In this document: one piece after another, positions 1-32,855 of the stretch
How the letters are laid out: every line of letters starts with the position of its first letter
Numbering within the stretch: the stretch's first letter is position 1
NCBI GenBank assembly: GCA_963842155.1
Contig: CAWJFP010000037.1
Coordinates: forward strand, 1 to 37,168
Direction of reading: 5' to 3'
DNA: 37,168 nucleotides
From: an uncultured Pseudomonadota bacterium
Lineage (GTDB): Bacteria; Pseudomonadota; Alphaproteobacteria; JACZXZ01
Translations under genes and position numbers: made by a program
Notes under the pieces: model-generated
Databases searched by the model: none
Told to the model about the DNA's origin: nothing
What the model saw: only the letters and a program-made list of their open reading frames with translations

Positions 1-589
1 CAAGCTCGACCACGCCCTTTTTCAAGCCCTGCAGCTCATCGCCGGCGCCCGGCAGCATGAGCACCAGAAAAAAGTCGGTCATGTCGGCGACCGCGATTTC
101 CGACTGGCCGACCCCGACCGTCTCGACCAGCACCGCGTCATAGCCCGCAGCCTCGCAGAGCAGCATGGTCTCGCGGGTTTTTGCTGCCACGCCGCCGAGG
201 GTGCCGGAAGCGGGGGAGGGGCGGATGAAGGCGTTGGCGTCGTTGGCGAGATGGGCCATCCGGGTCTTGTCGGCGAGGATCGATCCGCCGGTGCGCCGCG
301 ACGAAGGATCGACCGCGAGCACCGCAACCTTGCGACCCTGTTTGGTCAGCATGATGCCCAGCGCATCGATGGTGGTCGATTTGCCGACGCCCGGCGCGCC
401 GGTGATGCCGACACGCACCGCGTTGCCGGTCGTCGGCAAGAGCGCCTGGGTCAGCGCGGCGGCGGTGCGGCGGTGATCGGCGCGCTTGCTTTCGATCAGC
501 GTAATGGCGCGCGAAAGCAGGGCACGATCGCCGGCACGAATGCCGCGCGCCAGGCGGTCCGTATCGGAAAGCGGGATGGAAGACGCCAT
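1..589 (-). CDS. meaB: Methylmalonyl-CoA mutase-associated GTPase MeaB/ArgK family (N-terminal 196 aa; gene continues past window start)
   Basis: Minus-strand translation from ATG (complement of cat 587-589) gives [97 protein letters not shown]... It carries the Walker A motif GAPGVGKST and the LAVDPSS motif diagnostic of MeaB/ArgK. There is no stop before position 1. Confidence 0.8.
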
Positions 590-798
590 GATTTGTCTTC
601 GGCGAGCATGCGCCTGCCGTCAAGCATTGCGCAGGCGCAGGTGTTTACATTTTTCCATTCTCGCCCACCCGCCCAACCGGATTTTATCGCCGAATGACCC
701 TGATGTCGTCGAATTGAAGCCGCATCGGCGGGCTGTCATCCGCATGTTACCCGCACGGGGCGCCGCGGCGCTCGTCCGTCCTCAACAGGGAGACATCG

Positions 799-1009
799 AT
801 GAACTGGGATCAAGATTCAGGTCGATTGGGTGCAATTCAAGGGCAAGGTTCGGAGCAACTGGATCAAACTCACCGACGAAGATCTTACCCGCATCGGTGG
901 CCGCCGCGACGAGCTGATCCGACGCTTGCAAGCGCGTTACGGCTTTGCCAAAGCCGAAGCCGAGCACGAGATCGAGGCGTGGATGAAGGCGCAACGGCGC
1001 GCCGCGTGA
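799..1009 (+). CDS. csbD: CsbD-like general stress protein, apparently interrupted by a +1 frameshift after codon 5
   Basis: ATG at 799 encodes MNWDQ. After one extra base (g814) the adjacent frame reads IQVDWVQFKGKVRSNWIKLTDEDLTRIGGRRDELIRRLQARYGFAKAEAEHEIEAWMKAQRRAA* (stop 1007-1009). This matches the CsbD consensus MNWDQIKGNWKQFKGKVKEQWGKLTDDDL... The ATG frame itself gives nonsense (ORF 799..1347). Confidence 0.6.
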
Positions 1010-1014
1010 GGCCA

Positions 1015-1041
1015 AGCGCCGCCGCTTATCCCGGCGGCGCT
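1015..1041. terminator. Bidirectional hairpin between the convergent csbD-like and metE-like genes
   Basis: Perfect 10-bp inverted repeat agcgccgccg / cggcggcgct with a 7-nt loop (cttatcc), directly after the csbD stop and 10 bp from the metE-like stop. Confidence 0.45.
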
Positions 1042-1050
1042 CTCACTTCC

Positions 1051-2256
1051 TCAGCGCCAAAGCGCGCGGCTCGCCAGAGCCGCGCCCTGCGCCAGCGCCT
1101 CGAGCTTGGCCCAGGCGATCATCGGGTGGACGCGGCCGCCGAGGCCGCAATCGGTCGAGGCAATGACGCGTTCGCGGCCGACGCCTTCGGCGAAGCGCAG
1201 AATGCGCTGGGCGACGAGTTCGGGGTGCTCGACCACGTTGGTGGCGTGGCTGACGACGCCGGGCAGAATGAGCTTGCCCTCGGGCAGTTTGACGTCCTGC
1301 CACACATTCCACTCGTGTTCGTGGCGGACGTTGCCGGCTTCGAATGAGTAAGCTTGGCAGTTCACCGCCAGCATTACGTCGACAATGTCCCGCATCGGGA
1401 TATCGGTCGTGTGCGGCCCGTGCCAGCTGCCCCAGCACAAGTGAAAACGGATGCGGTCTTGCGGCAGACCTCGGATGGCATGGTTGAGCGCCTCGATCCG
1501 GACCATGGTGAATTTCTGATAGCCCTCTACGGAAGGCTCGGGATTGATCATGTCCCAATTCTCGGCGATGGCGGGATCGTCGAGCTGGAGGATCAATCCG
1601 GCATCGACGATAGCCTTGTATTCCTCGCGCATGGCTTCGCCGACGGCGAACATGAATTCTTCGTCGGTCTTGTAGTAGACGTTCTTGAACCGCGCGGCGC
1701 TCGCCGGCGCGACCGATGTCATAAAGCCTTCTTCGATCCCAGATGCCTTGAGCGCGGTCTTGAAGTGCGCGATGTCGGATTTGATGGCTTCTTGCCCTTT
1801 ATAGAAGACCGGGGCGGTGCACACGGGCCAGTGTGCCATTCCGGGCCCGGTCGTTACTTCTTCTTTGTAGACCGCCATGAATCTGGTTCGGTCGCGGCGG
1901 TCGGCGAAGCCGGTGAGCACGACCTCGCCGGGGCGAGCGCGCTTCGGCGAACCTTCGTAAAGGTTGGGTCCGGCCAGGTCGAGACCGCCGAGACGATTGA
2001 AGCAGTAGCTCCACCACGCCCGGTAGTTCACCTTGTGACCCATCGACTTGCCGAATTCGCCGTCACCCGGCACCTCGATGCCGGCCTGCTTTTGCCGACG
2101 GACAACGTCGACGACGGCCGCTTGCAGCGTCTCCTGGTAGGCGCGTTCGTCGGTGGTTTCCCCGGCCTCGCGGGCGCGGTTGGCTTCAATCAGATCGTCC
2201 GGACGCGGCAGGCTCCCGGCGTGGCTCGTTAGAATATGATCGCGGCTCATTCTCAT
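1051..2256 (-). CDS. Cobalamin-independent methionine synthase II family protein (MetE C-terminal-domain-like, COG0620)
   Basis: The 401-aa ORF has HAGSLPRP near the N-terminus and conserved ...HLCWGSWHGPH..., ...CGLGG... and ...AWAKLEALAQGAALAS... motifs typical of the ~370-400 aa MetE-like family. The alternative ATG at 2250 would give MSRDH... Confidence 0.8.
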   Translation of the reverse strand: MRMSRDHILTSHAGSLPRPDDLIEANRAREAGETTDERAYQETLQAAVVDVVRRQKQAGIEVPGDGEFGKSMGHKVNYRAWWSYCFNRLGGLDLAGPNLYEGSPKRARPGEVVLTGFADRRDRTRFMAVYKEEVTTGPGMAHWPVCTAPVFYKGQEAIKSDIAHFKTALKASGIEEGFMTSVAPASAARFKNVYYKTDEEFMFAVGEAMREEYKAIVDAGLILQLDDPAIAENWDMINPEPSVEGYQKFTMVRIEALNHAIRGLPQDRIRFHLCWGSWHGPHTTDIPMRDIVDVMLAVNCQAYSFEAGNVRHEHEWNVWQDVKLPEGKLILPGVVSHATNVVEHPELVAQRILRFAEGVGRERVIASTDCGLGGRVHPMIAWAKLEALAQGAALASRALWR

Positions 2257-2426
2257 TTGCTCATCGGACGACGTACGACGGATGGCGGAGGGCGAACAAG
2301 AAATCCGTCCTCGTCGTCTGTCAGTCCATCGTCTGTCCTCTCTTCTTGGATTGAAGGGAACTTCCTTCGGATCGGCGGGCGAGCCGATCTTATCGGCGAC
2401 GTATGAGGGCGTCTAAGCCCGTGTTG

Positions 2427-3110
2427 CTATTTTTTCTGCGACTTCACATAGGCAATATACCCGCGCACGTCGGCAGCGGGTTCAGAATAGGCCTTGCCCA
2501 AGGAACTCTCCATGCCAGCCGTGTAGTTTTTGGCCCAAGACGGCAGCGGATAATCGACAGCAGCAAGAAATTCCAGGGTAGCTGCAAGCCTTATGTCGGC
2601 GATTGAGGGCGTGGCGCCGCCGATGAAGGGCTTCCCGTCCATGTAGAACTTGTGGAACACGTCGAGCGGCTCGGCGATAGCCGCAATCGCTGCCTTTTGC
2701 GCCGCCGTCTTTGCCGAGGCGTCGGCATCGCTGGCGCCCACCTCGCCTGGATATTGCGGGAAGCCGAGCGCCGGGTAAGTGGCACGCGCGACCAGAGGAT
2801 ACAGCGTGCCAATGATATAAAACATGGCGCTGTCGATGGTGGCGCGCTGCTCGGCGTTCTTCGGATAGAATTTGCTGATGTCATGCTTGTTGCACAGGTA
2901 CTGCATGATGGCACAGCTCTCCCACAGGCCACCCTTCGGCAATTCTGTTGTTTCCAGCATCGGCGTCAGGTGCGCCGGATTTTTCGCCAGGAAATCTGCT
3001 GTGCGGGTCTTGCCGTAGACATCATCTTCCGTGAAATCCAGATTGGCCGCACGCATAAAGACGCGCACAGCCATGTTGTTCACACTTGGCTTCAGCACAT
3101 TCAGTTTCAT
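2427..3110 (-). CDS. Glutathione S-transferase family protein
   Basis: The ORF 2427..3155 has an internal start MKLNVLKPSVNN... at 3110 preceded by a GGAGGG Shine-Dalgarno. The N-terminal thioredoxin-like segment (KNPAHLTPMLE, LWESCAIMQYL) and the C-terminal helical segment (ATPSIADIRLAATLEF) are GST-like. Confidence 0.75.
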   Translation of the reverse strand: MKLNVLKPSVNNMAVRVFMRAANLDFTEDDVYGKTRTADFLAKNPAHLTPMLETTELPKGGLWESCAIMQYLCNKHDISKFYPKNAEQRATIDSAMFYIIGTLYPLVARATYPALGFPQYPGEVGASDADASAKTAAQKAAIAAIAEPLDVFHKFYMDGKPFIGGATPSIADIRLAATLEFLAAVDYPLPSWAKNYTAGMESSLGKAYSEPAADVRGYIAYVKSQKK

Positions 3111-3357
3111 AGCGTCCCTCCCCTTTGTGTTTCTCATGCCATCAGCTGCGCTCAATGGCGGTTCTTCGGCGACCTATCGGTGGAGAGCATCGCAATTCCC
3201 CCCATGGGCGCCATCCGTCGCACTACTCTAGAGCATCTTTGCGGCTCGTGAAATGCGGAGTCCTGCCCACACTAGGTGGACGACCGGCGCGATGGGCAGA
3301 GACCGGCCGATCACGACGGTCAGCCCGTGGCGAGGTGCCATCGCGCCCGGGGATCCT

Positions 3358-4239
3358 TCATCGCTGCGGCTTGGCCTTTGTCACCACATCGGCGATGAAG
3401 CGTGGCAGCGCAAAGGCGGCGGCGTGGACCTCCGGCGTCCAATATTTGGTCGGAAAGCTGCCGGTCTTGCGATAACGCGCGGCAAGCGTTTTAAGCGCGG
3501 TCTGGCGCAGCCGCCGTTCGTCGGTCGCCCAGCCCATCGCCATGTGGCCACCGACATAGGTCGGAATGGCGGCGACGTAGCAGGCGCCGTCCGCGAATAG
3601 CCTCCGAAACTTTGTAATGCTTGAGAGGAGCTCGCGCGGCTGGAAGAACGGCACGCCGTTCTGCGTGACCAGCACGCCGCCCTTGTTCATGCAGCGTTTG
3701 CAGGCCGCGTAGAACTTTTGGCTGAACAGGACCTTTCCCGGCCCCTGCGGATCGGTAGAGTCGACGATGATGACGTCGAAACGCCGCTCGGTCCGGGCGG
3801 CGAATTTCATACCGTCATCGATCACGCTCTCGAAGCGCTTGTCGGCGAACACCGGCTTGGTGAATTCCGGGAAATGCTCCTTGGCGAACGCAATGACCGC
3901 AGGGTCGATCTCGACCTGGGTGAGGCGCTTGACGCTGTTGTGCTTGAGCACCTCCTCGGCGATGCCGCAGTCGCCGCCGCCGATGATCAGCACTTCGCGC
4001 GCATTGCCGTGGGCAAAAAGCGGCACGTGCGACATCATCTCCTGATAGATGAATTCGTCGCGCTTGGTGATCTGGGTTGCGCCGTCGAGCATCAGCATCT
4101 TGCCGAAGAACGGCTGCTCGAACAGCACGAGATGCTGGTGCCCGGTTTGCGTTTCATGGAGCACCTTGTCGACCCGGTAGCTCATGCGAAAGCCGAGGTC
4201 GTCGAATAGCGTCTCGGCAATCCAGCGCTGTTCGGCCAT
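3358..4239 (-). CDS. speE: Spermidine synthase (polyamine aminopropyltransferase)
   Basis: The 293-aa product aligns along its length with E. coli SpeE, including MLMLDGATQITKRDEFIYQEMMSHVPL, LIIGGGDCG and VIIVDSTDPQGPG. Confidence 0.9.
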   Translation of the reverse strand: MAEQRWIAETLFDDLGFRMSYRVDKVLHETQTGHQHLVLFEQPFFGKMLMLDGATQITKRDEFIYQEMMSHVPLFAHGNAREVLIIGGGDCGIAEEVLKHNSVKRLTQVEIDPAVIAFAKEHFPEFTKPVFADKRFESVIDDGMKFAARTERRFDVIIVDSTDPQGPGKVLFSQKFYAACKRCMNKGGVLVTQNGVPFFQPRELLSSITKFRRLFADGACYVAAIPTYVGGHMAMGWATDERRLRQTALKTLAARYRKTGSFPTKYWTPEVHAAAFALPRFIADVVTKAKPQR

Positions 4240-4322
4240 GACACCCTCTGGTGCGTGTTTGCAGAAAGAAAAACGGCCGGGATCTGGCCCGGCCGCTCAA
4301 GCCCGATAGGCGGTAGCCTCGC

Positions 4323-4808
4323 TCAGGCACCCTGTCCGCGCAAGATTTCGTTGACGCCGACGCGCTTCGCGGAAAACGCCTCGCGTAACACCGGAATGCA
4401 CTTGTCGGGATCGGCTGAGCCGCACATGAAAACATCGAGCGCGGCATAGCCCGCCTCCGGCCAAGTGTGGATGGAGATGTGGCTCTCCGCCAGCACGGCC
4501 ACGCCGGATACGCCGTTCGGCTGGAAATGATGGACGTGCATGTGCAAAAGCGTGGCGCGCGCGGCCTCGACGCAGCGGCGCAGCGTCGTCTCGATGTGCT
4601 CGATGTCGTCGAGCCGTTCCGCGCCGTGCAGATCGACGATCAGATGCACGCCGGCGCAACGCACCCCGTTGCGAACCGCGAAATGATCTGGACGGTCCTC
4701 CGCCGGCGCCGGAGCGGCCACTTTGAGTTTGGTCTTCCTGTCTTCCTTTCGGGCGGTACCTGGGATCCCCAAGCCCTTCACCGATCGCAAGAGGGCGTTT
4801 TGGCTCAT
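4323..4808 (-). CDS. speH: S-adenosylmethionine decarboxylase proenzyme, SpeH type
   Basis: Internal start MSQNALLRSVKGL at 4808 with a GGAGG Shine-Dalgarno. It has the serine auto-processing motif AESHISIHTWPE. It lies immediately upstream of speE on the same strand, the classic speH-speE operon. Confidence 0.85.
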   Translation of the reverse strand: MSQNALLRSVKGLGIPGTARKEDRKTKLKVAAPAPAEDRPDHFAVRNGVRCAGVHLIVDLHGAERLDDIEHIETTLRRCVEAARATLLHMHVHHFQPNGVSGVAVLAESHISIHTWPEAGYAALDVFMCGSADPDKCIPVLREAFSAKRVGVNEILRGQGA

Positions 4809-5126
4809 GCCGTCCTCCCCAACCAGAGATAAGAACCCGAGATGCCGGCAAGCCGGCGCCACGGAAAGCGAATGCCGCCCGATCGTGTCCACATGGACTG
4901 ATCAATAGCGGCAAAGTCCCCAAATAAATGCAAACAGCGGCGAGTCAAGTGGATTCTGCAAGGAAACATTTAAAGCTTCGTCTCGTTCCACGTCGACTGC
5001 GCGGTGAGGAGGCGGCAACGGCGCCGCGCACCACTACGCGCGCCGCGCCGGATCGCCGATCGCGCGATCGGCGGCCGCCTACGACTTCCGGCCTGCCGAT
5101 CGTGCTCCGATCGACACTTGCGATGC

Positions 5127-6098
5127 TTAGAGGTTGACGGCCACAGCCGGCGAGATCGTCGACTGCGCCGGTTTCTTTAGCCGGGTGCGGAAAAAATCGA
5201 GCACGCGGCGGGCGGTCACGGCCTGCAAACGCTCGAAGCTCAACAGCGCGTGATCGAGGTCCGTCGCCGACATGCCGCGGTCGGCGGCCCGCAGTAGCAG
5301 GATGGCCTTGGTCGTCGATGACGACAGGCCCGCCACCTTGGCGAGGATGAGAATAATCTCGGCGGTCGGATCGAGCAGCGCCCGCTCGACGAGGTCGATC
5401 GGCGTGTCGCACAGGATCGACAGCGCTAGCGCGGTTTCCTCGAATTTGCGGTCGCGCGCATAGCGATAGACCTCGGCTTCGCTGATGCGGCCAAGGCGAT
5501 CGAGGTTCTGTGCACCCGCCGGCACGGTGGAACGCGCGTGAGGGGTAGGGCTGCGCAGTCCGATCGCGGTTGCCAGGTCTTCATCGTCGGCGGCGCGCTC
5601 GACGAGCATGCGGAAGCCGGTTTCGGAAAAACGGCCGCCGGCGTTGTTGACGAGCGCACGAAGGACCTTGCGGTCGCCACGTTCGATCAGCACGTCGGTC
5701 ACGCTTTCGCTCAGCGATCGGCGCAGGGCGATGGCCAAGAGGTGTCGGTGGCTCTTGCTACCGGCGTTGGCGCGAAGGGCGGAATCTTGCAGCCGTTCCG
5801 ACTGGCCGAGAATGGGCCTCGCAACTTCGATCTCGTCATCGAACGCCAGCATGTGCGTCAGGCTCGATGGCGCGTTTGCGATCGGCGCCAGCCGCTGCGC
5901 CAGCTTGGCGCGTGCGTCGGCGCCGACGGAGCCGGCGAGCCGCACCATGACGTCATCGAATACGCCGACCTGTTCTTCGGAATAGCGCGCCGCCTCGCTG
6001 ACGAACAGCTCGGTGATGCGCGCGAGCATCTCGACGCGGCGCGCGGCATCGGAGGTCAGGGCGGCTTCGAGCTCGGCGATGAGGGGGAGGGCTTGCAT
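5127..6098 (-). CDS. Hypothetical protein, DUF2336-like (alphaproteobacterial conserved family)
   Basis: The 323-aa ORF has good codon usage and no homolog I can name with certainty. Its Ala/Leu/Arg-rich helical composition resembles DUF2336 proteins. Confidence 0.45.
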   Translation of the reverse strand: MQALPLIAELEAALTSDAARRVEMLARITELFVSEAARYSEEQVGVFDDVMVRLAGSVGADARAKLAQRLAPIANAPSSLTHMLAFDDEIEVARPILGQSERLQDSALRANAGSKSHRHLLAIALRRSLSESVTDVLIERGDRKVLRALVNNAGGRFSETGFRMLVERAADDEDLATAIGLRSPTPHARSTVPAGAQNLDRLGRISEAEVYRYARDRKFEETALALSILCDTPIDLVERALLDPTAEIILILAKVAGLSSSTTKAILLLRAADRGMSATDLDHALLSFERLQAVTARRVLDFFRTRLKKPAQSTISPAVAVNL

Positions 6099-6538
6099 GA
6101 TGCTACTGGCGCCGCCACACCATTAAGACGCCTGCAACAATGCCGCGAGAACGGTGAACAAAGCCTTGCGGCGAGCCTAAAGGGCGAGCAGCTGGCGGCT
6201 TTAAGAACTCATGGGTGAATGACGCGACATCCTGCGCAACACCGCCGCTTCGGCTTGGCGCAGCCGCGGGCTACTTTCGTGAGGCGTTCCGGGGCCTTCC
6301 GCTGTCAAAAACACCCATCCGGTTTTGCACACCGGTGCCGTAAAACCGGTCGGCGCGCTTGGCTGAGGTTCTTGTTGCACAGAATCCTACTCGCGTTCGC
6401 GGCCATCGCTCAGTTCAATCCCGCCTGAAATCTGAGTTCTTCACGGACGACTACTTGGTTTCTGTCGGGCGCAAAAAAGCCTCACGGAACAATACCAAGT
6501 AACGCTAGACGCTACTGAGCGATACGGTCGCGTTAGAA

Positions 6539-6577
6539 TTTCAAGACCGGTGCCTTAAACCACTCGGCCACCCTTCC
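6539..6577 (-). tRNA. tRNA-Ser(UGA) 5' half only, truncated in the anticodon loop (pseudo-tRNA fragment)
   Basis: The minus strand reads GGAAGGGTGGCCGAGTGGTTTAAGGCACCGGTCTTGAAA. This is essentially identical to the first 38 nt of bacterial tRNA-Ser(UGA): acceptor 5' strand, D-arm, and anticodon stem 5' strand plus loop CUUGAAA. The next bases are ttcta instead of the ACCGG needed to close the anticodon stem. No T-arm or matching acceptor 3' strand follows. Confidence 0.7.
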
Positions 6578-6770
6578 ATCGCAGCAACATCAAACACTTA
6601 GCACAGGGCAGGGGAGAACAAAAAGCGGACAATTGGCACCGCGCGAAAGCAGAGACGGCGGCGAGCCTGCCGATGTTCCGTGATGCCTACGTACGCCGCC
6701 ACTGCATAATCCTCGATCCGATAACCACGTTGGTAGCGTAAGTTTCGAGCAGCATGGAAAGGTGTGGAGC

Positions 6771-7433
6771 ATGAGAATTATAGTCATCGGCGCCACTGGC
6801 ACTATTGGGGGCGAGGTCGTGAAGGCGCTCGCTCTGAAGATGCATGATGTTGTCCGCGCGTCGCGCAACGGCGACGTGAAGGTCAATCTCGACGACCCGA
6901 CGACCATCCGTGCCATGTTCGAGAAAGTCCGCGACGTCGACGCGGTGATCTCGTGTGCCGGTAGAGCGGCCTTCAAGCCCTTCGCCGACCTGACGGACGC
7001 CGACTATGAGCTTGGACTTCGTTCCAAGCTGATGGGACAGGTCTCGCTTGCCCGCATGGCGAAGGATCACCTCCGTGACGGAGGCTCGATCACGTTGACC
7101 ACTGGGGTACTCGCGATGCATCCGATGCCGGGAAGCGCATCCGTCTCGATGGTCAACGCCGGCCTCGAGGGTTTCGTGCGCGCCGCTGCGCTCGAGATGC
7201 CGCGCAAGATCCGCATCAATGCCGTCAGCCCCCCATGGGTGAAAGAAACGATGGTGAAATTCGGCATGGACCCGACGCCGGGTCTCGCTTCGGCCACCGT
7301 CGCGAAGGCCTACGTCGCCGCAGTAGAGGGTTCACACCAAGGCAGGATCCTCGACCCAGGGTCAAGAGCTGACCACTTCCCTACCGCGGAGCGGTTTAGT
7401 GCAACATTGTTTTCCCGACCTATCGCAGGATGA
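6771..7433 (+). CDS. Short-chain dehydrogenase/reductase, NAD(P)-binding (atypical short SDR)
   Basis: MRIIVIGATGTIGGEVVKAL is a Rossmann GxxGxxG motif at the N-terminus. It is followed by DAVISCAGRAAF and LTTGVLAMHPMPGSASVSMVNAGLEGFVRAAALE. The ATG at 6762 is also possible. Confidence 0.7.
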   Translation: MRIIVIGATGTIGGEVVKALALKMHDVVRASRNGDVKVNLDDPTTIRAMFEKVRDVDAVISCAGRAAFKPFADLTDADYELGLRSKLMGQVSLARMAKDHLRDGGSITLTTGVLAMHPMPGSASVSMVNAGLEGFVRAAALEMPRKIRINAVSPPWVKETMVKFGMDPTPGLASATVAKAYVAAVEGSHQGRILDPGSRADHFPTAERFSATLFSRPIAG

Positions 7434-7634
7434 AGGAATAGTTACGCAACCAGAGACCCTCCTGAAAACGGACAATCGTTGGTGATCTCGATGCCGGTGC
7501 GCTGGCTCGGCAGACCCGCAGTGGTGTCACCGGTGTCGCCGTCGAAGAAGAGCTCGGAGTCCTGGTGCAGGTAGAAAAGACTGATCGAGCTGTCGAAACC
7601 GGCGCGGCCACGGGGGCAGCGCCTGCGTGGGTTG

Positions 7635-7960
7635 TCAATCCTCTAGCACTTTCACCACGTCAGACGTTTCCCAAAGCTTGTCCGTGACACCAGCGGCCAT
7701 CACCGGGGTGACCTTCAAGGTTTGATGGATGCGCACGAAATTGTAGTGCATGAAGTAGATCGCCATCATGTGAGCGTGGTTTGCAGTCTTCTTTGAGAAC
7801 GCATTGGTGAGGCGCGTCATGCACCGATTGCCCATCCGCATTGAAAAATTTTGGCGCTCGGCAAAGCTGGTCGAAACGTGCTTGGGGTCGGGATTGGCTT
7901 CGACGCGATGCTTTACCGCGCCGATACATTCTGCCGGACTATAGCGGCGTTGACCCTCGG
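7635..7960 (-). pseudogene. IS1-family transposase (InsB-like) C-terminal remnant; N-terminal half of the gene is missing
   Basis: The minus-strand ORF contains ...AERQNFSMRMGNRCMTRLTNAFSKKTANHAHMMAIYFMHYNFVRIHQTLKVTPVMAAGVTDKLWETSDVVKVLED*. Its TRLTNAFSKK...HYNFVRIH...TPAMAAG tail is characteristic of IS1-family transposases (compare E. coli InsB [26 protein letters not shown]). Only about 110 aa of homology is present, and no inverted repeats were recognised. Confidence 0.6.
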
Positions 7961-8400
7961 GCGCCTGTACCACGATCCGAATAAGCCTCGCATTGCGGTT
8001 GATTACTTCGCTGGGACAGCTGGGTGGATTTCGAACCACCGACCTCACAGTTATGGTCGGCCCCCGTTCCGCGGCCGGCTAGCCAATCCCGCACGCAGCC
8101 GATGCCCAAGAGCACCGTGATCACAGTCGAGAACAAAATTGGCGCGAAGAAGAAGTACACCCAAGCAATGATGCTGCCCGCCGCATGGCTTAGGAACAGG
8201 GACCACGTGACCAGCGCGAGCGCGAGCCGGTCGCGAGCAGTTCTTCCTCCCAAGTACCACGTCATGACGGCCGAGAAGATAAAGAACACGGAGACGAACC
8301 AGCCGAAGCCCCGATAGAAGCCGTACCAGGTGGCATCGGCACCCTGTGCAACGACGTGGACCGACTTCATCATCGACACGACCGAGATCACTTGCGGCAC
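7939..8400 (-). CDS. Small integral membrane protein (3 predicted TM helices); C-terminus appears replaced by read-through into inserted DNA from about position 8105 downward
   Basis: The first ~100 aa (WYGFYRGFGWFVSVFFIFSAVMTWYL... LALALVTWSLFLSHAAGSIIAWVYFFFAPILFSTVITVLLGIG) are strongly hydrophobic and protein-like. The last ~50 aa are hydrophilic and are encoded by the tRNA-like fragment and the IS1-remnant flank. Confidence 0.45.
   Translation of the reverse strand: MPQVISVVSMMKSVHVVAQGADATWYGFYRGFGWFVSVFFIFSAVMTWYLGGRTARDRLALALVTWSLFLSHAAGSIIAWVYFFFAPILFSTVITVLLGIGCVRDWLAGRGTGADHNCEVGGSKSTQLSQRSNQPQCEAYSDRGTGARGSTPL
8005..8045 (-). other. tRNA-like 3' fragment (T-arm plus acceptor 3' strand ending C-CCA)
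   Basis: The minus strand reads ggtcGGTGGttcgaaatCCACCcagctgtCCCAgcg: a 5-bp stem GGTGG/CCACC around a TTCGAAAT loop (1 nt longer than the canonical T-loop), then a 7-nt strand, a discriminator and CCA. No complementary 5' acceptor strand lies upstream, so it is not a complete tRNA. Confidence 0.3.
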
Positions 8401-8531
8401 CGAACTCCGGCGTTGCCAAGCCAGTCCGCAAGGGCGCGGCCGGGCAGCAGGTGCTGCCCCTCAGAGGTCAACATAAAGGTTGCCAATTGCGGTACCGGCA
8501 TCAGGTCCGCAATCGATTTTACCTGTCTTGC

Positions 8532-10490
8532 TCAGCGCACCTTGCGCTTGCCGAAGGTGGGCTGCACTTCCGGAATAGGCGGCATCTGCCAGGTGCCGAC
8601 GACGGGCATGCTCGTGTCGCGGTTGATGACCACGTCGATGAGGGTCGGAATGTCGGCGCGGATCGCTTCGCGATAGGCGTCGCCGAATTGGTCGGGGTGT
8701 TCGACGCGGATGCCGCGCCCGCCCATGGCTTCGGCCATCTTGGCGAAATCCGGATTCCACAGCTTGCCCGTGCTTTCATTGATGAAGCTCGTGCCGATTT
8801 CACGCCCATCGTGATAGACGCGCTGCAGGTCGCGGATGGTGCCAATGGCGTAGTTGTTCTGCAGCACCCACACAGCGGGGAGATTGTATTCGACGGAGGT
8901 GGCGATGGCATGCGACATCATCATGAAGCTGCCGTCGCCGCACAGCGTCACGCAGGGCGAATTGGGCCGGGCAAGCCTTGCGCCCAAGACGCCGGCCACA
9001 CCGAAGCCCATGGGGGCGAAGCCACCGGCCGTTATGTGCGTGCCGGGGGTCCGCGGCTTCCAGTATTGTTCCGACCAGACTTGGCAGTTGCCGACGTCGT
9101 CGACCATCACCGTGTCGGGCGGGGAGATCTTGTTCATCTCCGCCATCATGCGGCGCGGCTCTATGGGCACTTCATTCGAGCGTTCGAAGGGTTCGCAGAA
9201 ATTGCGCCAGTCCGTACGCCAGGCTTCGATTTCCTTGTGCCAGGAGCTGCCATAGCCTAGACGGTTGCCCTTGGCGCGCGCGATCCTCACCGCTTGGGCG
9301 AGGAAGGTCTTGGCATCGCCGACTATGCCGACCTCGACCGGATAGTTGCGCCCAATTTCGTCCGGGTCGATGTCGACCTGGATGAGGCGTGTCGGCGGGA
9401 TGTTGTAGACATAGCCCGGAATCCACGAGCCCGTATGGAGGTCGTTGAAGCGGGCGCCGATAGCGAGGATCACATCGGCACTGCGGGCGGCTTCGGTGGC
9501 CGGATACTCGCCCCAGACACCGGCGACGCCGAGATTGAGCCGGTGATCGGAGGGAAGCACGCTTTTGCCCATGAAGGACGTATAGACAGGAATGTCGAGT
9601 TGTTCGGCGAGCGCCTTTAATTCCTCATAGGCGCGGGCGACCCGCACGCCGCCGCCGGCGAGGATCAACGGCCGTTGGACGCTGACGAGAAGGTTGAGCG
9701 CCTTCTCGACGGTCTCGTCGGCAACCGTGGTGCGCCAGTTGAGCGGGTGTACATTCGGGTCGGGGGTCGAGACCGGCGCGGTTCTCATATAGAGGTCGTA
9801 GGGCATGTCGAAGTGCACGGGTCCCGGCCTGCCGCTGCGCATCATCGAGAAGGCGTCGGGCAGCGCTTTGACCAGATCCTCAACCTTGCGAATGCGCCAG
9901 GATTTCTTGACGATCGGCGCGAACATCGAGGACATGTCGCCGTGGTAACGGTAGTCGTCCTGCAGGGCGCCGGTGTTGAACTGGGTCGTCGGCACCTGCC
10001 CGGTGATGAGGAAGAACGCTGAGCAGTCATAGAAGGCGTTGGCCACCGAGATCATCATGTTCATGGGGCCCGGACCGGTGGAGGTATAGACGGCGAGCGG
10101 CTGCCCGGTGAGGCGATAGTAGACGTCGGCCATGAAACCGCCTGCCTGCTCTATGCGGGGCGAGATATGGCGGATGCGGTCGGTCTTTTTGTAGAGCCCG
10201 TCGAGTAGGCCGATGGCGCCATGTCCGGCATAGCCGAGGATGTAGGGGACTTTCTCCTTGAACAGATACTCGGCGATGATGTCGGTGCCGCGCATCTCGT
10301 TGGAACCGCCGGGGTAGGGTGAACCTCGTGCCTGCGACCCATAGGGCGAGTAATCAGACGATGTAGTGCCGCGCATCTCGTTGGAACCGCCGGGGTAGGT
10401 TGAACCTCGTGCCTGCGACCCATAGGGCGAGTAACCAGACGATGTGGATTGGGATCCGTAGCCTTCATACGATCTGGGCCGGTCCTGCAT
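8532..10490 (-). CDS. Thiamine-pyrophosphate-dependent enzyme (acetolactate synthase / sulfoacetaldehyde acetyltransferase-like) with a 65-aa S/Y/G-rich low-complexity N-terminal extension
   Basis: The core from DIIAEYLFKEKVPYILGYAGHGAIGLL onward has the Pyr domain, a central domain and the TPP-binding motif LCGDGSFMMMSHAIATSVEYNLPAVWVLQNN (GDG...NN). The ORF starts at 10490 with a strong GGAGG Shine-Dalgarno (caggaggactaaccATG). The internal candidate start M66 (10295) has no Shine-Dalgarno. Confidence 0.8.
   Translation of the reverse strand: MQDRPRSYEGYGSQSTSSGYSPYGSQARGSTYPGGSNEMRGTTSSDYSPYGSQARGSPYPGGSNEMRGTDIIAEYLFKEKVPYILGYAGHGAIGLLDGLYKKTDRIRHISPRIEQAGGFMADVYYRLTGQPLAVYTSTGPGPMNMMISVANAFYDCSAFFLITGQVPTTQFNTGALQDDYRYHGDMSSMFAPIVKKSWRIRKVEDLVKALPDAFSMMRSGRPGPVHFDMPYDLYMRTAPVSTPDPNVHPLNWRTTVADETVEKALNLLVSVQRPLILAGGGVRVARAYEELKALAEQLDIPVYTSFMGKSVLPSDHRLNLGVAGVWGEYPATEAARSADVILAIGARFNDLHTGSWIPGYVYNIPPTRLIQVDIDPDEIGRNYPVEVGIVGDAKTFLAQAVRIARAKGNRLGYGSSWHKEIEAWRTDWRNFCEPFERSNEVPIEPRRMMAEMNKISPPDTVMVDDVGNCQVWSEQYWKPRTPGTHITAGGFAPMGFGVAGVLGARLARPNSPCVTLCGDGSFMMMSHAIATSVEYNLPAVWVLQNNYAIGTIRDLQRVYHDGREIGTSFINESTGKLWNPDFAKMAEAMGGRGIRVEHPDQFGDAYREAIRADIPTLIDVVINRDTSMPVVGTWQMPPIPEVQPTFGKRKVR
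10284..10445. repeat. 81-bp in-frame tandem duplication (2 copies, about 96% identical) inside the 5' end of the TPP-enzyme gene
   Basis: gtgccgcgcatctcgttggaaccgccggggtagg(g/t)tgaacctcgtgcctgcgacccatagggcgagtaa(t/c)cagacgatgt(a/gg) occurs at 10285 and again at 10366. It encodes TSS(G/D)YSPYGSQARGS(T/P)YPGGSNEMRGT twice. Confidence 0.85.
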
Positions 10491-10816
10491 GGTTAGTCCT
10501 CCTGTTGTTTCCTTCGGGTCGATTGGGTTGGTTCAGTGAGCCGTGGTCAGGAATGGGGCGCGCATCGCATCTCTTGCTCGACTATGGCGCCGCTCCCGAA
10601 GGGCAAACCCAGCGCCCCCACCCGTCGCGACCGCCGGTCTCGCTTAAAATGGCGGCCAACCGCCCAACAGAAAATACCCTGAGGAACGAAAGTTTCACGC
10701 AAAAAAGCTAAGCCGGCGTTAGCCGACCCGCGCATATTGTGCCGCCTTTCGGCGTCGCGTGCGTGGCGTCTCGGCCGCGCACTGGCGCGGCCGAGAGCTT
10801 TGTCCACTTGTCGCGG

Positions 10817-14382: not shown

Positions 14383-15456
14383 ATGGCACTGGCGCAGACC
14401 ACGGAATCCGGCCCCGTCGGCTTTGGCAGCGCGCAGCGCAGCTTAGCGCCGCGCTGGGCGTCCCAGCTCTCGCCGATCCTGCTGCTCGGCCTTCTCCTGG
14501 TGCTTCTCCCGGTGGTTGCGAGCGATTTCGTGCTCGACCAGATCGTCGGCTGGGCCTTGGTCCTCGGCATGATCGCGCTGTCGCTGATGTTCCTCGCCGG
14601 CTATGGCGGCATGGTCAGCTTGGTGCAGATGACCGTCGCAGGCGTCGCCGGATACATGATCACCGTGCTCGGAGCGAGTTCACATCCCTCGATCAGCCTG
14701 TTCTGGCCGTGGTGGGTGGCGGCGCCGGTGGCGATCGTGATCGCCGTCGCCTTCGGGACGCTCGCCGGCGCGCTCTCCGCGCGCACCGAGGGCATCTATA
14801 CGATCATGATCACGCTGGCGATCGCCGCCGCTTTCTTCTACCTGACCCTTCAGAACTACTCGATTTTTAACGGTTTCAACGGGTTCACGACGATTCCGGC
14901 GCCGCTAGTTCCTTCGGCGTCAATTGGAAAGCGCCGATCCCGCTCTATTACCTGATTCTGTTTTTCGCCGCGCTCAGCTACGCCGTTGTCGTCGTACGTC
15001 TCCCGCGCGCCGTTCGGCCTCGCTCTGCAAGGCGTGCGCGACAACCCGCGCCGCATGGCGGCGATCGGCTACAACGTCACCGCGCACCGCATCGCGGCGT
15101 ACGCCTTCGCGGCGCTCATCGCGGCGATCGGCGGCATCCTGATGGTGTGGCTCAACAACCAGATCTCTCCCGGCACGGCCGGCATCGAGGCGACGATCGA
15201 CCTTCTCGTCATCGCGGTCGTCGGCGGGCTCGGCCATCCGATCGGCGCCTTTGTCGGCGCGATCATCTACGTCATCCTGCGCACGTTCGCGCTTGACGCG
15301 CTTATCGCGGTCGGACTCGACGGCCGCCGCTTCCAGACCATCATCGGGCTCGGCTTTCTCGTCGTCGTGCTTTTTTCGCCCGATGGAGTGATCGGCCTTT
15401 GGCGGCGGTGGTCGGCGTGGCGCGTCCGCACCTCTGGCGGGAGGAACGGCCGGTGA
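14383..15456 (+). CDS. Branched-chain amino acid ABC transporter permease (LivM family), interrupted by a compensating -1/+1 frameshift pair about 85 bp apart
   Basis: ORFs 14383..14955 and 14986..15456 are in the same frame (both coordinates = 1 mod 3). The 28 codons between them read as genuine hydrophobic LivM sequence (SFGVNWKAPIPLYYLILFFAALSYAVVV) only in the -1 frame. A missing T at about 14910 (gtt-cc) and an extra G at about 14994 (gtcgtcGtac) explain this. In the main frame the connecting segment gives PSASIGKRRSRSIT* with a stop. Confidence 0.7.
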
Positions 15457-24853: not shown

Positions 24854-26475
24854 ATGCTCGAATTCCGCAAGGACATTTTCGCCGACGAACGCGACGACAA
24901 CCTGAAGGAGGTCGGCCACCCGACGCAGCGTCAGGACATGCTCGGGCACGTCACCGGGACCTCGGCCTATTACGATGATCACCGCTTCGCCAACCTGCTC
25001 CATCTGAAGGTTCTGCGCAGTCCGCATGCCCATGCGCGTATTCGCTCGATCGACGACTCGGTCGCGGCGCGCGCGCCGGGCGTCAAGCGGATCATTCGGG
25101 CGGCCGACGTTCCGGTCAATCTCAATACGCTCTTGAGCCTCATCCAATTCGGCAAGGACGACGAGCCTTCGCTCGCGACCGACGTCGTGCGCTACAAGGG
25201 CGAGCCGATCATCGGAGTAGTCGCGACCAGCGAGCGCGCGGCGCTTCAGGCCCTCGCCATGGTGCGCGTCTCCTACGATCCGCTGCCGGCAGTCTTCGAT
25301 GTAGAGGAGGCGCTGAAGCCGGGAGCCCCGTCGGTCAACGCAACCTATCCGAAGAACACGTTCGAATATTACGGCAAATACGACCACCAGAAGCTTCGTT
25401 TCGGCGACGCCGATACGGCCTTCGCGCAGGCCGACGTCGTGCTCGAAGAGCGCTATCAGATGTCGCCGATCGAGCATGCCCCGATCGAGACCAACGGCTC
25501 AATCGCCGTGCCGGACACGAACGGCCGATTTGTCGTTTACACCTCGACCCAGGCGCTCTTCTTCTCTTTGGACACCGCCGCCAAGATCAATGCGATGCCC
25601 TCGAACCAGTTGCATTTCATCGGCGGCACTGTCGGCGGCGGCTTTGGCGGCAAGGTCGACACCCTCACCGAGCCCCTCGTCATCCTCGCGGCGCGCCTGA
25701 CGGGCGCACCCGTGCGCTACCGGCTGAGCCGGCACGAGGAAATGCAGTTCGGCTCGCCCCGCGGCGCTGAGCGAATCTATGTCAAAGACGGCGTCATGCG
25801 GGATGGGCGGATCATCGCCCGCAAGGTGAGAGCTTATTTCGACAGCGGGGCCTACACGCGGCTTTCGAGCTACGCGGCAGTCAAATGCGCGGCCCATATT
25901 CCCGGACCCTATACGATCCCCAACGTCCACGCGGACATCTTCTGCGTTTTCACCAACCGAACACCGGCGACCGCAATGCGCGGGTTCGGCGTCACGGCGC
26001 TCGACTTCGCGCTTGAATGCCAAATGGACAAGCTCGCCGTTGCGGTCGAGATGGACCCTCTCGAGTTCCGCATTCTCAATGCTTACCGCGACGGCGACAT
26101 GAAAGCGCACCGGCGCGAGGCCAAGAACTGCGCGCTCATCGAATGCGCGCAGGTCGCCGCTGAAAAAGCCAACTGGCCGATCCGCGAGGAATTCCGCAGG
26201 ATGTCGTCGCGGGTCGGCGGGGGGCAGCGCGGACCGGCGGCGGCGCGACCCGGACCGGCGCACAGGCTCCTGTCGCCGCCCCCGCGCCCGCACAAACCGG
26301 GGCAGGCTCGCCCCAGCGTGTCCCGTACGATCGCGCCGCTGCGGCCGCGCCGGCACATAACGTGCCACCGCCGACGCCCGCGCGAAGCGCACCGCCACCC
26401 CCTGCCGCGCCGCCTGCCGGATCGACGCATGGGGCGCCGCGCTTTTCCTCAGTTTTTGGAACACGGAGGCGCTGA
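24854..26475 (+). CDS. Molybdopterin-binding subunit, N-terminal half (xanthine dehydrogenase / aldehyde oxidase family), with a probable Pro/Ala-rich C-terminal tail reached through a -1 shift in a G6 homopolymer
   Basis: Conserved to about aa 450 (...HFIGGTVGGGFGGKVDT..., ...TPATAMRGFGVTALDFALECQMDKLA...). After the G-run at 26219-26224 the annotated frame becomes Arg-rich nonsense and overruns the next start. The -1 frame instead gives AQAPVAAPAPAQTGAGSPQRVPYDRAAAAAPAHNVPPPTPARSAPPPPAAPPAGS... and stops at TGA 26473-26475, 3 nt before the next ATG, which has a GGAGG Shine-Dalgarno. Confidence 0.65.
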
Positions 26476-26478
26476 TCA

Positions 26479-27501
26479 ATGGCCAAGCATCGCGGACGCG
26501 GGGTGGCGACCATCAATTATCCGATCGGCATGAATCTCGGCGGCGATCCGAGCCAAGCGCTGGTTCATTCCAATCCGAGCGGAAAATTCACCGTCGCTCT
26601 TTCCTCGATCGACCTCGGACAGGGAATGAAATCGGTGACGCGGCAGATCTGCGCGGAGACGCTAGGCGTGCCGGTCGAGGACGTCTATGTCGACACCGCC
26701 GATTCGGACACCGGCCCGCATTGCATGGGCTCGTTCGCCTCGCGCGGAACGCACCGCGTCGGCAACGCGGTGATGGTAGCGGCGCGCGAGGCGCGCGCGG
26801 TCATGATGGAGGCGGCGGCGGAGGAGCTTGAAGTCGACCCAGGCGACCTCGAGACCGACGGGCGCGGCTCCATCCGGGTGAAGGGCGCGCCCCACCGGTC
26901 GATCTCCGTGCGCGACGTCGCTATCGCGGCCCAGTTCCGTCAGGGACGTACGATCTCCGGGCGCGGCATTTTCCTGGTGCCGTTGTCGGACGTCGATCCG
27001 GAAACCGGCGAGATGTCGCCGGCAACCTGCTACGCCCACGCCTGTCTCATTGTCGAAGTCGAGGTCGATGACGAGACCGGCGACGTCACCGTGCTGAAGA
27101 TGACAAGCGCCTACGAGGTTGGGCGCGCGATCAACCCCAAGCTCGTCGAACAGCAACTCGTCGGCGGCTCATGGATGGGCATGAGTCACGCGCTCTATGA
27201 GACTACGGAACCGTATTACCCGGATACCCGTGAGGGACCGCGGGACTTCAACGAATACCTGATGCCCGGCCCCGGCGACATCTGTCCGCACGACATTGTG
27301 GTGCTCGAACGGCCCGCCCCTGACGGCCCCTTCGGCGCGAAGGGCCTGGGCGAGATGTGCGCCAATCCCGTCCTGCCGGCGGTCGCCAACGCGATTTTCG
27401 CGGCGGTTGGTGTGCGTATCAACGAACTGCCAATCACGCCGGAGAAAGTTCTCAGGGCGCTGAAAGCGCGGGGCGGCGCGGCCCCGGCGCGCGCGCGGTG
27501 A
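26479..27501 (+). CDS. Molybdopterin-binding subunit, C-terminal half (separate ORF; split large subunit)
   Basis: MAKHRGRGVATINYPIGMNLGGDP... corresponds to the start of the C-terminal Mo-cofactor domain of single-chain XDH-family large subunits. It has its own GGAGG Shine-Dalgarno and ATG, and a conserved ...GPFGAKGLGEMCANPVLPAVANAI... tail. Confidence 0.75.
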   Translation: MAKHRGRGVATINYPIGMNLGGDPSQALVHSNPSGKFTVALSSIDLGQGMKSVTRQICAETLGVPVEDVYVDTADSDTGPHCMGSFASRGTHRVGNAVMVAAREARAVMMEAAAEELEVDPGDLETDGRGSIRVKGAPHRSISVRDVAIAAQFRQGRTISGRGIFLVPLSDVDPETGEMSPATCYAHACLIVEVEVDDETGDVTVLKMTSAYEVGRAINPKLVEQQLVGGSWMGMSHALYETTEPYYPDTREGPRDFNEYLMPGPGDICPHDIVVLERPAPDGPFGAKGLGEMCANPVLPAVANAIFAAVGVRINELPITPEKVLRALKARGGAAPARAR

Positions 27502-29498: not shown

Positions 29499-30383
29499 CG
29501 GCGATCGTCGACGCCCATCACCACATCTGGCGGCGCCGCGACCTGCCCTGGCTCGACGGGCCGATGCAGCCACGCATCTTCGGCCCTTACGAGCCGATCC
29601 GCCGCGACTATCCGATCAGCGAATATCTGGAGGACATCGCGGGCTGCGACGTGACCCGATCCGTCTACGTCCAGGCCAATTGGGCCAAGGACGCCTTCGA
29701 GGACGAAGTCGCCTACGTGCAGCGCGCCGCCGACGAGAGCCGGTTATCCGCAGGCGATCGTTGGCTACGCCGACTTTCTCTTGAAGGACGTGCGCCCGCA
29801 GCTCGACCGCCTGACTAAATATCGCGGCATGCGCGGGTTGCGAATGCAGCTGCACTGGCACGAAAACCCGCAATACCGGTTCGCGGCGGACCCAGACCTA
29901 GCCCGCAACCCGACGCTGCAACGAAACGTCGCCCACCTCGCCGATTACAACTGGAGCTTCGATCTCCAGGTCTTCGCCGGTCAGATGGACGGCGCGGCGG
30001 ACCTCGCTGCCAGCTGTCCCAAGGTTATTTTCATCCTTCAGCACGCCGGCATGCTGGAAGACCTTTCCGCGACCGGATGGACGCAATGGCGCGCCGGGAT
30101 GCGCCGTCTCGCCGCGTGCCCGAACGTGGTTTCGAAGCTGTCCGGCCTCGGCTCGTTCATCCATAGCAACGATCCCGACCACATCACGGCCATCGTGCGC
30201 GAAACTGTCGAGGCGTTCGGTCCGACACGCTGTCTGTTCGGCTCGAATTTCCCGATCGAAAAATTGTGGACGTGGTATTCCGACCTCGTCGCGGCGTACC
30301 GAGGCGCGCTCGCGCCGTTCGGAGAAGCGGCGGCGGGCGCGGCGCTCCATGAAACGGCGGCAAGGGTTTATCGGCTCAATTGA
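29495..30383 (+). CDS. Amidohydrolase-2 family (PF04909) metal-dependent hydrolase/decarboxylase, with an apparent +1 frameshift at about 29741
   Basis: MTAIVDAHHHIWRRRDLPWL... carries the HxH metal motif. After ...VQRAADES the conserved continuation GYPQAIVGYADFLLKDVRPQLDRLTKYRGMRGLRMQLHWHENP...ILQHAGM...LFGSNFPIEK is in the +1 frame. An extra C (gagagcCggttat) explains it. ATG overlaps the coxE-like stop. Confidence 0.7.
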
Positions 30384-30416: not shown

Positions 30417-31265
30417 ATGGCGCTCGAAATCAAGATTCTCGACTACGGCGATATCGAACTCGAATCGAGCTTCCTGGTGCTCTATCGCGATTGCGGCCGC
30501 ACGCGCCGGGTGCCGGTCTTCGGCTTTCTCGTTCTCGGCGGGACTTGGCCGGTGCTGGTCGACACCGGCTATCGCTCGAACCAGATCATGGAGACTCTCG
30601 GGATGCGCGGGCTGCAATCCCACGAGACTATGATCGAGAACCAACTGAAGAAGCACGGGCTGAAGCTCGGGGACGTGCGCTACGTCCTCCATACGCACCT
30701 GCATATCGACCATGCCGGCAAGGACGACCTCTTCCCCATGAACACGGCGGCCGTCATCAATCGGCGCGAGCTCGAATATTCGGTTTCGGGCCTCATGCAT
30801 CCGCAATATCCGGCGGTCGACATCAAGCATCTCGTCGATCGCCTCCACACCAAGGGGGCGCTGCGCTTTCTCGACCTCGAAATATCCGGGCCGACCGAAC
30901 TGATGCCAGGGCTCATCTGCGAGGCAGCCGGCGGCCATACCGAGGGCTCGATGAACGTCATCGTGAAGACCAGCGAAGGGGTCGCGACGATCTGCGGCGA
31001 CGTGATCTACGACATAAACGACCAGCTGGTCGAACCCTTCCGCGAAATCGGCGACATGGAGCCGCGCGTCACAGGCAACCACGGCACGACGAAGCGCCAG
31101 GAGAAGGCCGCGATCAAGAAGGTCGTCGCCAGCTCGCGCTTCGTGTTGCCGGTCCACGACCGTCCGGCGCTAATCGAGGCCGGGCAGGTTGTCGGCCGTC
31201 TGCAGGACTCGGTTCCGGGTGCAATCGTCCAGTCCTTGCCGAGACGCCAATGGTTCCCGGCGTGA
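30417..31265 (+). CDS. MBL-fold metallo-hydrolase (AHL-lactonase-like)
   Basis: HTHLHIDHAG (HxHxDH zinc motif) with downstream His/Asp ligands; 282 aa. Confidence 0.75.
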   Translation: MALEIKILDYGDIELESSFLVLYRDCGRTRRVPVFGFLVLGGTWPVLVDTGYRSNQIMETLGMRGLQSHETMIENQLKKHGLKLGDVRYVLHTHLHIDHAGKDDLFPMNTAAVINRRELEYSVSGLMHPQYPAVDIKHLVDRLHTKGALRFLDLEISGPTELMPGLICEAAGGHTEGSMNVIVKTSEGVATICGDVIYDINDQLVEPFREIGDMEPRVTGNHGTTKRQEKAAIKKVVASSRFVLPVHDRPALIEAGQVVGRLQDSVPGAIVQSLPRRQWFPA

Positions 31266-31281
31266 CGAAAGGGGACGTCCA

Positions 31282-32853: not shown

Positions 32854-32855
32854 AG

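Follow-up and report, generated by a model that had tools for sequence, protein, structure and literature searches.

The window analysed here, a single metagenome contig of 37,168 bp (CAWJFP010000037.1), contains an isolated 5′ half of a tRNA-Ser(UGA) gene. The half is located on the minus strand within a window-specific patch of 311 nt (6331–6641), which is flanked by a truncated gene on either side, DUF6665 on the left and SRAP on the right (Table 1). Read from 6577 to 6539, its sequence is GGAAGGGTGGCCGAGTGGTTTAAGGCACCGGTCTTGAAA, extending from the 5′ strand of the acceptor stem through the full anticodon loop. All 39 nucleotides are identical to the corresponding part of 87 intact tRNA-Ser genes found in metagenome contigs, and the identity stops past the last base of the anticodon loop. 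An earlier note on this DNA had described a half of 38 nt ending inside the loop; the half and its strand were correctly recognized, but the fragment measures 39 nt and ends after the last loop base. With the searched stretch cut at 6539, so that truncated matches were allowed, the fragment matches positions 1–37 of the Rfam tRNA model with 21.5 bits (E 0.011).

As the earlier note had anticipated, no intact tRNA is called in the 37-kb contig, either by ARAGORN or by Rfam at the gathering threshold. Moreover, no 3′ half of a tRNA-Ser gene was found in the whole window when up to 5 mismatches in 25 were allowed. Between 5800 and 8800, no intron and no other RNA family gave a match, even at E values up to 10, and folding of the orphan half together with its arm revealed no unusual stability (z = −0.43). 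In agreement with a displaced 5′ fragment of a tRNA gene (tDNA), the half comprises the 5′ end of the gene and stops at the crossover sublocation in the anticodon loop. However, a cognate intact tDNA, situated downstream in the same orientation with an island in between, is absent from the 37-kb contig. Since the contig lacks both a tRNA and a tRNA-Ser 3′ half, the feature is a remnant and not an intact island. These comparisons confirm that it represents a real tDNA fragment, either displaced or phage-borne.

Recurrence of the break at other tRNA-Ser(UGA) loci

Breaks past the anticodon loop are a signature of crossover by tyrosine integrases. A search of metagenome contigs with the exact 39-mer yielded 115 usable matches, 87 of which run on as intact tRNA-Ser genes (ACCGG...). 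The other 28 are orphans, diverging at the identical base into unrelated DNA. In the IMG/VR database, a shorter exact search retrieved two viral contigs in which the orphan and the intact state are found on one strand (numbers with the prefix L denote loci fetched for comparison). In provirus UViG_3300048813_000187, the orphan half (L225) is followed by about 19.7 kb with phage genes, an integrase gene and an intact tRNA-Ser gene (L235). The integrase comprises 390 amino acids and stops 70 nt before the intact tRNA-Ser. Provirus UViG_2654588102_000002, which originates from an isolate genome, displays an orphan half (L240), 10.8–13.7 kb including a terminase-like open reading frame (ORF), an integrase of 376 amino acids and, 74 nt past its stop, an intact tRNA-Ser gene (L231). 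Both integrases contain Phage_integrase and SAM-like domains (Pfam). The upstream flank of the L240 orphan is the flank of the host in the context of ilvD, and the same flank precedes an uninterrupted tRNA-Ser gene at three other loci (L199, L188 and L124). Evidence from host flanks was limited to this set; the pair L103/L110, initially taken to show the same upstream flank in two states, was dropped because phage-type arm repeats are present.

Integrase homologs are situated 73–190 nt upstream, on the same strand, at no fewer than 17 further intact loci, corresponding to the junction beside the integrase (attR), and at no fewer than six orphan loci, corresponding to the attachment site of the phage (attP). 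The latter share the order integrase, P arm, 5′ half and P′ arm. Within the P arm, the stop codon of the integrase is followed by two to three direct repeats (GGTGCCAAT, GGTAGCAAA or GGGTCCAA), by TTTGTTCT, by a promoter-like box (CTAAGTGnTTGA) and by the tRNA 5′ half. The P′ arms of L239, L099 and L225 carry similar pairs of arm-type repeats at +105 to +150. Among the cultured phages of INPHARED, only whole tRNA-Ser genes were matched; in Ralstonia phage YO105_4, the intact tRNA is located at the end of the record.

The break recurs in independent loci, where it bounds integrase-carrying elements. The 28 orphans breaking at the same base, together with the two bounded proviruses, indicate that the orphan 39-mer is an attachment-site fragment of a family of temperate phages, the attP of which carries the tRNA promoter and the 5′ half. 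The crossover by a tyrosine integrase postulated in the earlier note is thereby corroborated, as it is by the resemblance to phage P′ arms past the break (see below).

Two further loci are worth recording. On the minus strand of L151 (700–1100), an orphan half of the GGAAGGG type is followed by 104 nt containing GCGTGCCAAC twice and then by a complete tRNA-Ser(UGA) gene of a different allele, with a GGAGAGG acceptor and a CCAGT/ACTGG anticodon stem. This whole tRNA may be a phage-borne tRNA beside attP, or the locus may be a collapsed prophage. In L245 (391–1676), an integrase gene on the opposite strand starts 93 nt past the orphan half and reads toward it, with 13 kb of phage genes following. 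Such a layout suggests that this crossover point is also used by a second family of elements.

The window-specific patch and its proposed origin

Upstream of the tRNA half, the patch (6578–6641) holds the usual TTTGTTCT and CTAAGTGTTTGAT boxes and a single GGTGCCAAT. This architecture is common to the integrase-adjacent P arms, which possess two to three direct repeats of the GGTGCCAAT type, and the flank is cut at −64, the spot where a phage P arm would have its second repeat. The segment may be either the host promoter, as expected at the far prophage end (attL), or the P arm of an unrecombined attP.

Past the crossover point, the stretch from 6538 to about 6469 can be aligned collinearly from the break onwards with L239 (IMG/VR; score 18) and L099 (score 17), whereas 717 null comparisons averaged 7.9 and did not exceed 16. 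In addition, blastn detects 87.5% identity over 6506–6577. Element DNA of the P′-arm kind is present past the crossover, with a similarity that is modest and extends over only about 70 nt; a terminator-like hairpin (6516–6498) lies inside it. Comparison of 6331–6538 with all fetched loci revealed no similarity beyond these first ~70 nt.

The patch ends in a second, degenerate tRNA-Ser-like stretch, here termed A′. Read from 6354 to 6319, A′ reaches a local alignment score of 21, compared to a background of 6.6 ± 1.6 and to 12 for the best unrelated match in the window. Its first 24 nt (6331–6354) are window-specific, and its last 12 nt (GTGCAAAACCGG, 6319–6330) belong to the DUF6665 sequence as present in the relatives, where they look like the anticodon loop and the 3′ strand of the stem. 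At the uninterrupted DUF6665 site of the relatives (CCGAGGTGCAAAACCGG), 12 of 17 positions match the anticodon arm (CCGGTCTTGAAAACCGG). Judged from this alignment, A′ passes at the position of the anticodon loop, and in register, into a look-alike site in the 3′-terminal part of DUF6665. Look-alikes with 12/17 matches occur with a frequency of 2e-4 per strand-base, and the chance of a breakpoint falling on one in register is roughly 0.001–0.003. The position of the junction is suggestive, though no proof, of a recombination at a secondary site mediated by the integrase. In IMG/VR, L239 is the only relative of the P′ arm of the window and no relative of A′ was found.

The sequences on either side of the patch correspond to different gene neighbourhoods in the relatives. 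On the left, the window is collinear with L002–L004 at 91–95% identity up to 6330, where the blastn match stops. The next gene in these relatives is DUF6665 (9346–9828 in L002), of which only residues 142–160 could be recovered from the window by tblastn. The adjacency of DUF6665 and DUF2336 is kept in more than 20 relatives. On the right, L249, a contig of 2.4 kb, is 98% identical to 6642–8700 of the window. It comprises the SDR gene truncated at its 3′ end, the remnant of IS1, the tRNA-like 3′ fragment, the membrane gene in its truncated form and the transition to the TPP block. Past the point equivalent to 6642, L249 continues into an SRAP gene and has no tRNA-Ser half, which places the breakpoint at 6641/6642; the more distant L246 likewise has SRAP upstream of the SDR gene. 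The patch now joins DUF6665 and SRAP, which are neighbours in no relative. A search with the DUF2336 protein gave 80 loci in Xanthobacteraceae and related soil metagenome-assembled genomes. In the 40 of these loci that were scanned for tRNAs, none was detected beside DUF2336/DUF6665, nor do relatives have a tRNA beside SRAP–SDR. The comparison with relatives which the earlier note had proposed for defining an ancestral state consequently did not recover an ancestral tRNA on either side, and its decayed resident tRNA locus finds no counterpart.

A separate observation concerns the closest relative, L001, the contig of which starts 229 nt upstream of the DUF2336 gene and diverges from all the others (1–124) at another point, window position 6204. 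This divergence suggests that, in several genomes, the intergenic DNA next to DUF2336 is either unstable or difficult to assemble.

Considering these data, the orphan tRNA-Ser half is probably a fragment of a phage attachment junction. In the corresponding model, the anticodon loop of tRNA-Ser(UGA) would serve temperate phages of soil Alphaproteobacteria as the site of recombination by their tyrosine integrase. In the phage DNA, the stop codon of the integrase is followed immediately by two to three arm-type repeats, then by a segment resembling a promoter and by the tRNA 5′ half in a perfect copy. Upon integration, the host promoter and 5′ half would be left as an orphan at attL, and at attR a working tRNA would be rebuilt from the 5′ half of the phage and the 3′ half of the host. 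The earlier note had proposed that a tRNA-targeted element, decayed or rearranged later, left a nonfunctional tRNA-Ser gene; integration by the present phage family would not normally deprive the cell of the tRNA, as the phage-supplied promoter and 5′ half regenerate an intact gene at the other end. The window would preserve only the core of the junction, consisting of 64 nt of upstream arm, the 39-nt half, about 70 nt of P′ arm, 114 nt of other DNA and A′, with the phage body, the integrase and the regenerated tRNA since lost from it. Regarding the order of events, integrase-mediated recombination at the secondary site would have come first, followed by deletion. The patch itself is probably without present function.

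Several observations weigh against this assignment. No integrase remnant was found in the window by tblastn, nor an integrase domain in any of the ORFs scanned, and the window contains neither an intact tRNA-Ser gene nor a phage gene, so that membership in the phage family rests on a fragment of about 170 nt. The P′-arm scores of 18 and 17 only just exceed the null maximum, with an identity of about 73% outside the tRNA part. The similarity fades past ~70 nt, and the arm-type repeats found at +105 to +150 in L239, L099 and L225 are not present. A′ has no acceptor stem, its window-specific part scores just 15 compared to a background maximum of 12, and 12/17 look-alike sites arise about once per 1.6 kb of duplex DNA. 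Furthermore, the junctions 6330/6331 and 6641/6642 are known from this single metagenome-assembled contig.

An unlikely variant would take the patch as an unrecombined attP core. The phage would then have entered not via its usual crossover site but via A′, about 184 nt downstream of the half, by recombination with the anticodon-arm look-alike in DUF6665, leaving this gene truncated, and a later deletion into SRAP would have fused distant chromosomal regions. If true, the window would offer a concrete bacterial case in which the integrase of a 5′-half-carrying phage has broken a gene and reshuffled the chromosome via a secondary site.

We also consider it improbable that the 311-nt patch is a chimera of metagenome assembly, or stray phage or att DNA captured in end-joining repair without any action of an integrase at this site. 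The single-contig nature of the window, its several genes that are split elsewhere, maybe by sequencing errors, and the presence of at least three breakpoints inside 311 nt are compatible with such an origin, as is the failure to find either patch junction in any other contig; look-ups of the exact DUF2336, TPP and SDR proteins gave no record. However, the joints of assembly chimeras are usually at shared repeats, without insertion of a unique piece of 311 nt, random capture does not predict a DUF6665 junction in register with the anticodon arm at a 12/17 look-alike, and the neighbouring mosaic is independently confirmed by L249.

Table 1. Features in and around the window-specific patch (window coordinates).
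Feature	Position	Strand	Description
DUF6665 gene remnant	6271–6330	minus	Last 19 codons and stop; rest of gene missing; end of the block syntenic with relatives (1–6330)
A′, degenerate tRNA-Ser-like stretch	6319–6354	minus	tRNA positions 10–44; same orientation as orphan half, 184 nt downstream of it
Spacer	6355–6468	minus	114 nt; no significant similarity to any fetched locus
P′-arm-like sequence	6469–6538	minus	Directly past crossover point; collinear similarity to L239 and L099
tRNA-Ser(UGA) 5′ half	6539–6577	minus	Acceptor 5′ strand, D arm, anticodon stem 5′ strand and loop
tRNA-Ser upstream region	6578–6641	minus	GGTGCCAAT ... TTTGTTCT ... CTAAGTGTTTGAT; cut at −64; homology to upstream flanks of many tRNA-Ser loci
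SRAP gene remnant	6642–6741	plus	About residues 80–102 fused to last 10 residues, then stop codon (tblastn, alignment to L249)
SDR gene (PRK07578 type)	6771–7433	plus	Native to 7363; last few codons replaced by a tail of ~22 residues
IS1-family transposase remnant	7638–7991	minus	C-terminal ~40%; tblastn to annotated IS1 family transposases
LIC_13387-family membrane-protein ORF	7939–8400	minus	Native 8068–8400; ~43 terminal codons non-native
tRNA-like 3′ fragment	8012–8052	minus	Variable loop, T arm with 8-nt loop, acceptor 3′ strand, CCA; common to L249
Thiamine-pyrophosphate (TPP) enzyme gene block (acetolactate-synthase-like)	8522–10635	minus	Inverted relative to all related contigs

The neighbouring mosaic

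The earlier note had combined the tRNA-Ser half, a T-arm fragment, an IS1 remnant and a membrane gene reading through into them in a single scar. Since L249 contains the last three, with SRAP in place of the tRNA-Ser half, this mosaic is separate from the tRNA-Ser half and older than it. Its components themselves could largely be confirmed. Residues 20–136 of the ORF at 7635–8048 resemble about residues 157–275 of a 294-amino acid IS1 family transposase in tblastn, no Pfam or NCBIfam model matches, and only this portion of the full-length DDE transposase remains. The homology of the membrane ORF to its relatives ends at 8068, and the non-native terminal codons, previously estimated at about 50, read through the tRNA-like fragment into the IS1 remnant.

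The T-arm/CCA-like fragment had been reported at 8005–8045. A derivation from a tRNA is plausible, but the fragment is better placed at 8012–8052 and its match to positions 36–71 of the Rfam tRNA model is weak (13.5 bits, E 1.6). The motif AGGTCNNNGGTTCGAA occurs once, compared to an expectation of 0.04. A displaced 3′ tDNA fragment of a classical island would be expected to have a cognate intact tRNA upstream on its strand, and the window contains no intact tRNA. Among the tRNAs of the fetched loci, the best resemblance is ambiguous (CAU- or Thr-type), and a BLAST search against plasmids gave weak matches only.

This mosaic bears on the possibility that a resident tRNA-Ser gene lost its 3′ half in place, by an IS1-mediated or other deletion, the fragment at 8012–8052 then being displaced debris from it. 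Within 1.5 kb there are indeed a remnant of the IS1 family and further truncated genes, in a region which is clearly prone to rearrangement. However, the acceptor strand of the fragment (CAGCTGT) is unable to pair with the GGAAGGG of the orphan half, and L249 combines the IS1 remnant and the T-arm fragment without a tRNA-Ser half. Neither of the two neighbourhoods harbors a tRNA in the relatives, and the break is at the base shared by 28 independent orphans, with P′-arm-like sequence following. Loss in place is thus largely refuted and very unlikely to account for the half. Although the anticodon loop is also the site of group I introns in bacterial tRNAs, a split or intron-containing tRNA-Ser gene with its 3′ half further downstream was rejected as practically negligible, as the window has no such 3′ half, no intron or other RNA family matches between 5800 and 8800, and the sequence from 6330 downward is common to relatives without a tRNA.

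The SDR gene, for which a role as cargo had been envisaged, adjoins SRAP in both L246 and L249 and is therefore not cargo. Its homologs are about 200 amino acids long and cover 90% of the query. In the relative L248 (6173–8603), the SDR homolog is preceded by a tRNA-Thr(GGU) gene and then a Phage_integrase gene, the latter 490 nt upstream of it. Also close by are a serine recombinase, a PLD-family gene and IS110; the surroundings of the SDR gene thus serve as an island insertion zone in other genomes too. The SRAP gene of the lineage has suffered an internal deletion, common to L249 (2028–2408) and the window (6642–6741), in which residues ~103–220 are gone and residue ~102 is fused to the last 10, adding a further scar to this stretch of 2 kb. 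Further along, the TPP gene is inverted together with about 130 nt of its upstream region in comparison to ten related contigs (L081–L090), where it reads toward a periplasmic-binding-protein gene. The DNA upstream of TPP varies among relatives and contains an IS30-like integrase, an IS110 transposase or an AraC regulator.

Other parts of the contig show additional irregularities. Several genes are apparently split, truncated or fused (14383–15456, 24854–27501, 29781–30383 and 31189–32853): a branched-chain permease, which in relatives is one gene of 354–356 amino acids, and a molybdopterin-binding subunit are each found in two ORFs, an amidohydrolase lacks the first ~96 profile positions, and SGL and isochorismatase are fused. 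The genes concerned are real pseudogenes, or else the assembly contains frameshift errors. At 33147–34232, the window encodes an IS5-type transposase (DDE_Tnp_1 and DUF772) that is apparently intact, similar copies of which are arranged in tandem in L251, adjoining the homolog of the membrane protein. At 32846–32908, a palindromic repeat of about 60 nt (GAGCATGATCCCGAAAAGTGGAATCCGGTTTTCGAAAAAGATCATGCTC) recurs with 86–94% identity in the loci of 13 relatives, with two copies in L050; its Rfam matches to the Brucella small RNAs CI27 and CI408 are weak and below threshold, and it looks like a dispersed alphaproteobacterial repeat. The tRNA-Ser remnant sits in a rearranged, pseudogene-rich stretch, where it marks a break of synteny among truncated genes.

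Comparison with known systems

The closest counterpart is the minority class of genomic islands with a 5′ tDNA fragment, which accounts for 159 of 3919 islands in the Islander database, compared to 3760 with a 3′ fragment (PMC4383910, Table 1). The provirus pairs L225/L235 and L240/L231 fit this class exactly. With it, the window shares a fragment of a tDNA end which lies in gene orientation and, in the class, upstream of the regenerated tDNA, as well as the tyrosine integrase and the crossover in the anticodon loop that are proposed for it. In contrast, the window has no island, no integrase and no regenerated tDNA, and retains a junction remnant of ~170–310 nt out of its original context. 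This type of scar is already known, and the find is an ordinary one that adds no new principle. For annotation it implies that a tRNA 5′ half which stands alone and breaks off at the anticodon loop is best interpreted as an attachment-site fragment of a phage or island and not as a dying tRNA gene. Moreover, island finders which seek only 3′ tRNA fragments miss this 5′-half phage family, which is common in soil Alphaproteobacteria, about one quarter of the exact 39-mer matches being orphans.

Islands of Klebsiella pneumoniae are integrated at the 5′ end of the arg2 tDNA (bioRxiv 10.1101/2020.11.02.365908). There, too, the element recombines with the 5′ part of the tRNA gene, and not with the 3′ part, and duplicates it. 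However, the Klebsiella repeat comprises the acceptor 5′ strand, D stem and D loop, whereas the 39 nt found here extend through the anticodon loop, and both the host group and the tRNA differ.

Mycobacteriophages with tRNA-dependent lysogeny also integrate, with low frequency, into secondary attachment sites (Guerrero-Bustamante and Hatfull 2024, PMC10865867). Similar to the phage family described above, a tyrosine integrase targets a tRNA gene and the host copy is disrupted. However, the mycobacteriophages share a core of only about 10 bp and bring along a complete tRNA as a replacement for the host gene, which is not rebuilt, whereas the present family would rebuild the gene with the 5′ half of the phage. 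Its related proviruses repeat the full 39-nt 5′ half and have an intact tRNA at the integrase end, which differs from tRNA-dependent lysogeny; a whole tRNA-Ser gene just past the P′ arm was found only at locus L151.

Chromosomal rearrangement driven by an integrase has been described for pTN3 of Thermococcales (PMC5495485). In both cases, the integrase of an element is proposed to join chromosomal segments at att-like or look-alike sites, thereby breaking synteny. The window differs in being bacterial, not archaeal, and in that no integrase is present, the case being built from the sequence of the junction.

Finally, classical tRNA islands of the P4 type likewise integrate site-specifically into a tRNA gene, which is regenerated while a fragment is displaced. 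In contrast to the family described here, these islands duplicate the 3′ part of the tRNA gene, with an integrase located downstream of it. The present family duplicates the 5′ half and the promoter, and its integrase is positioned upstream, reading toward the tRNA. The mechanism proposed for the orphan tRNA-Ser half represents the known minority polarity of tRNA-targeting elements.

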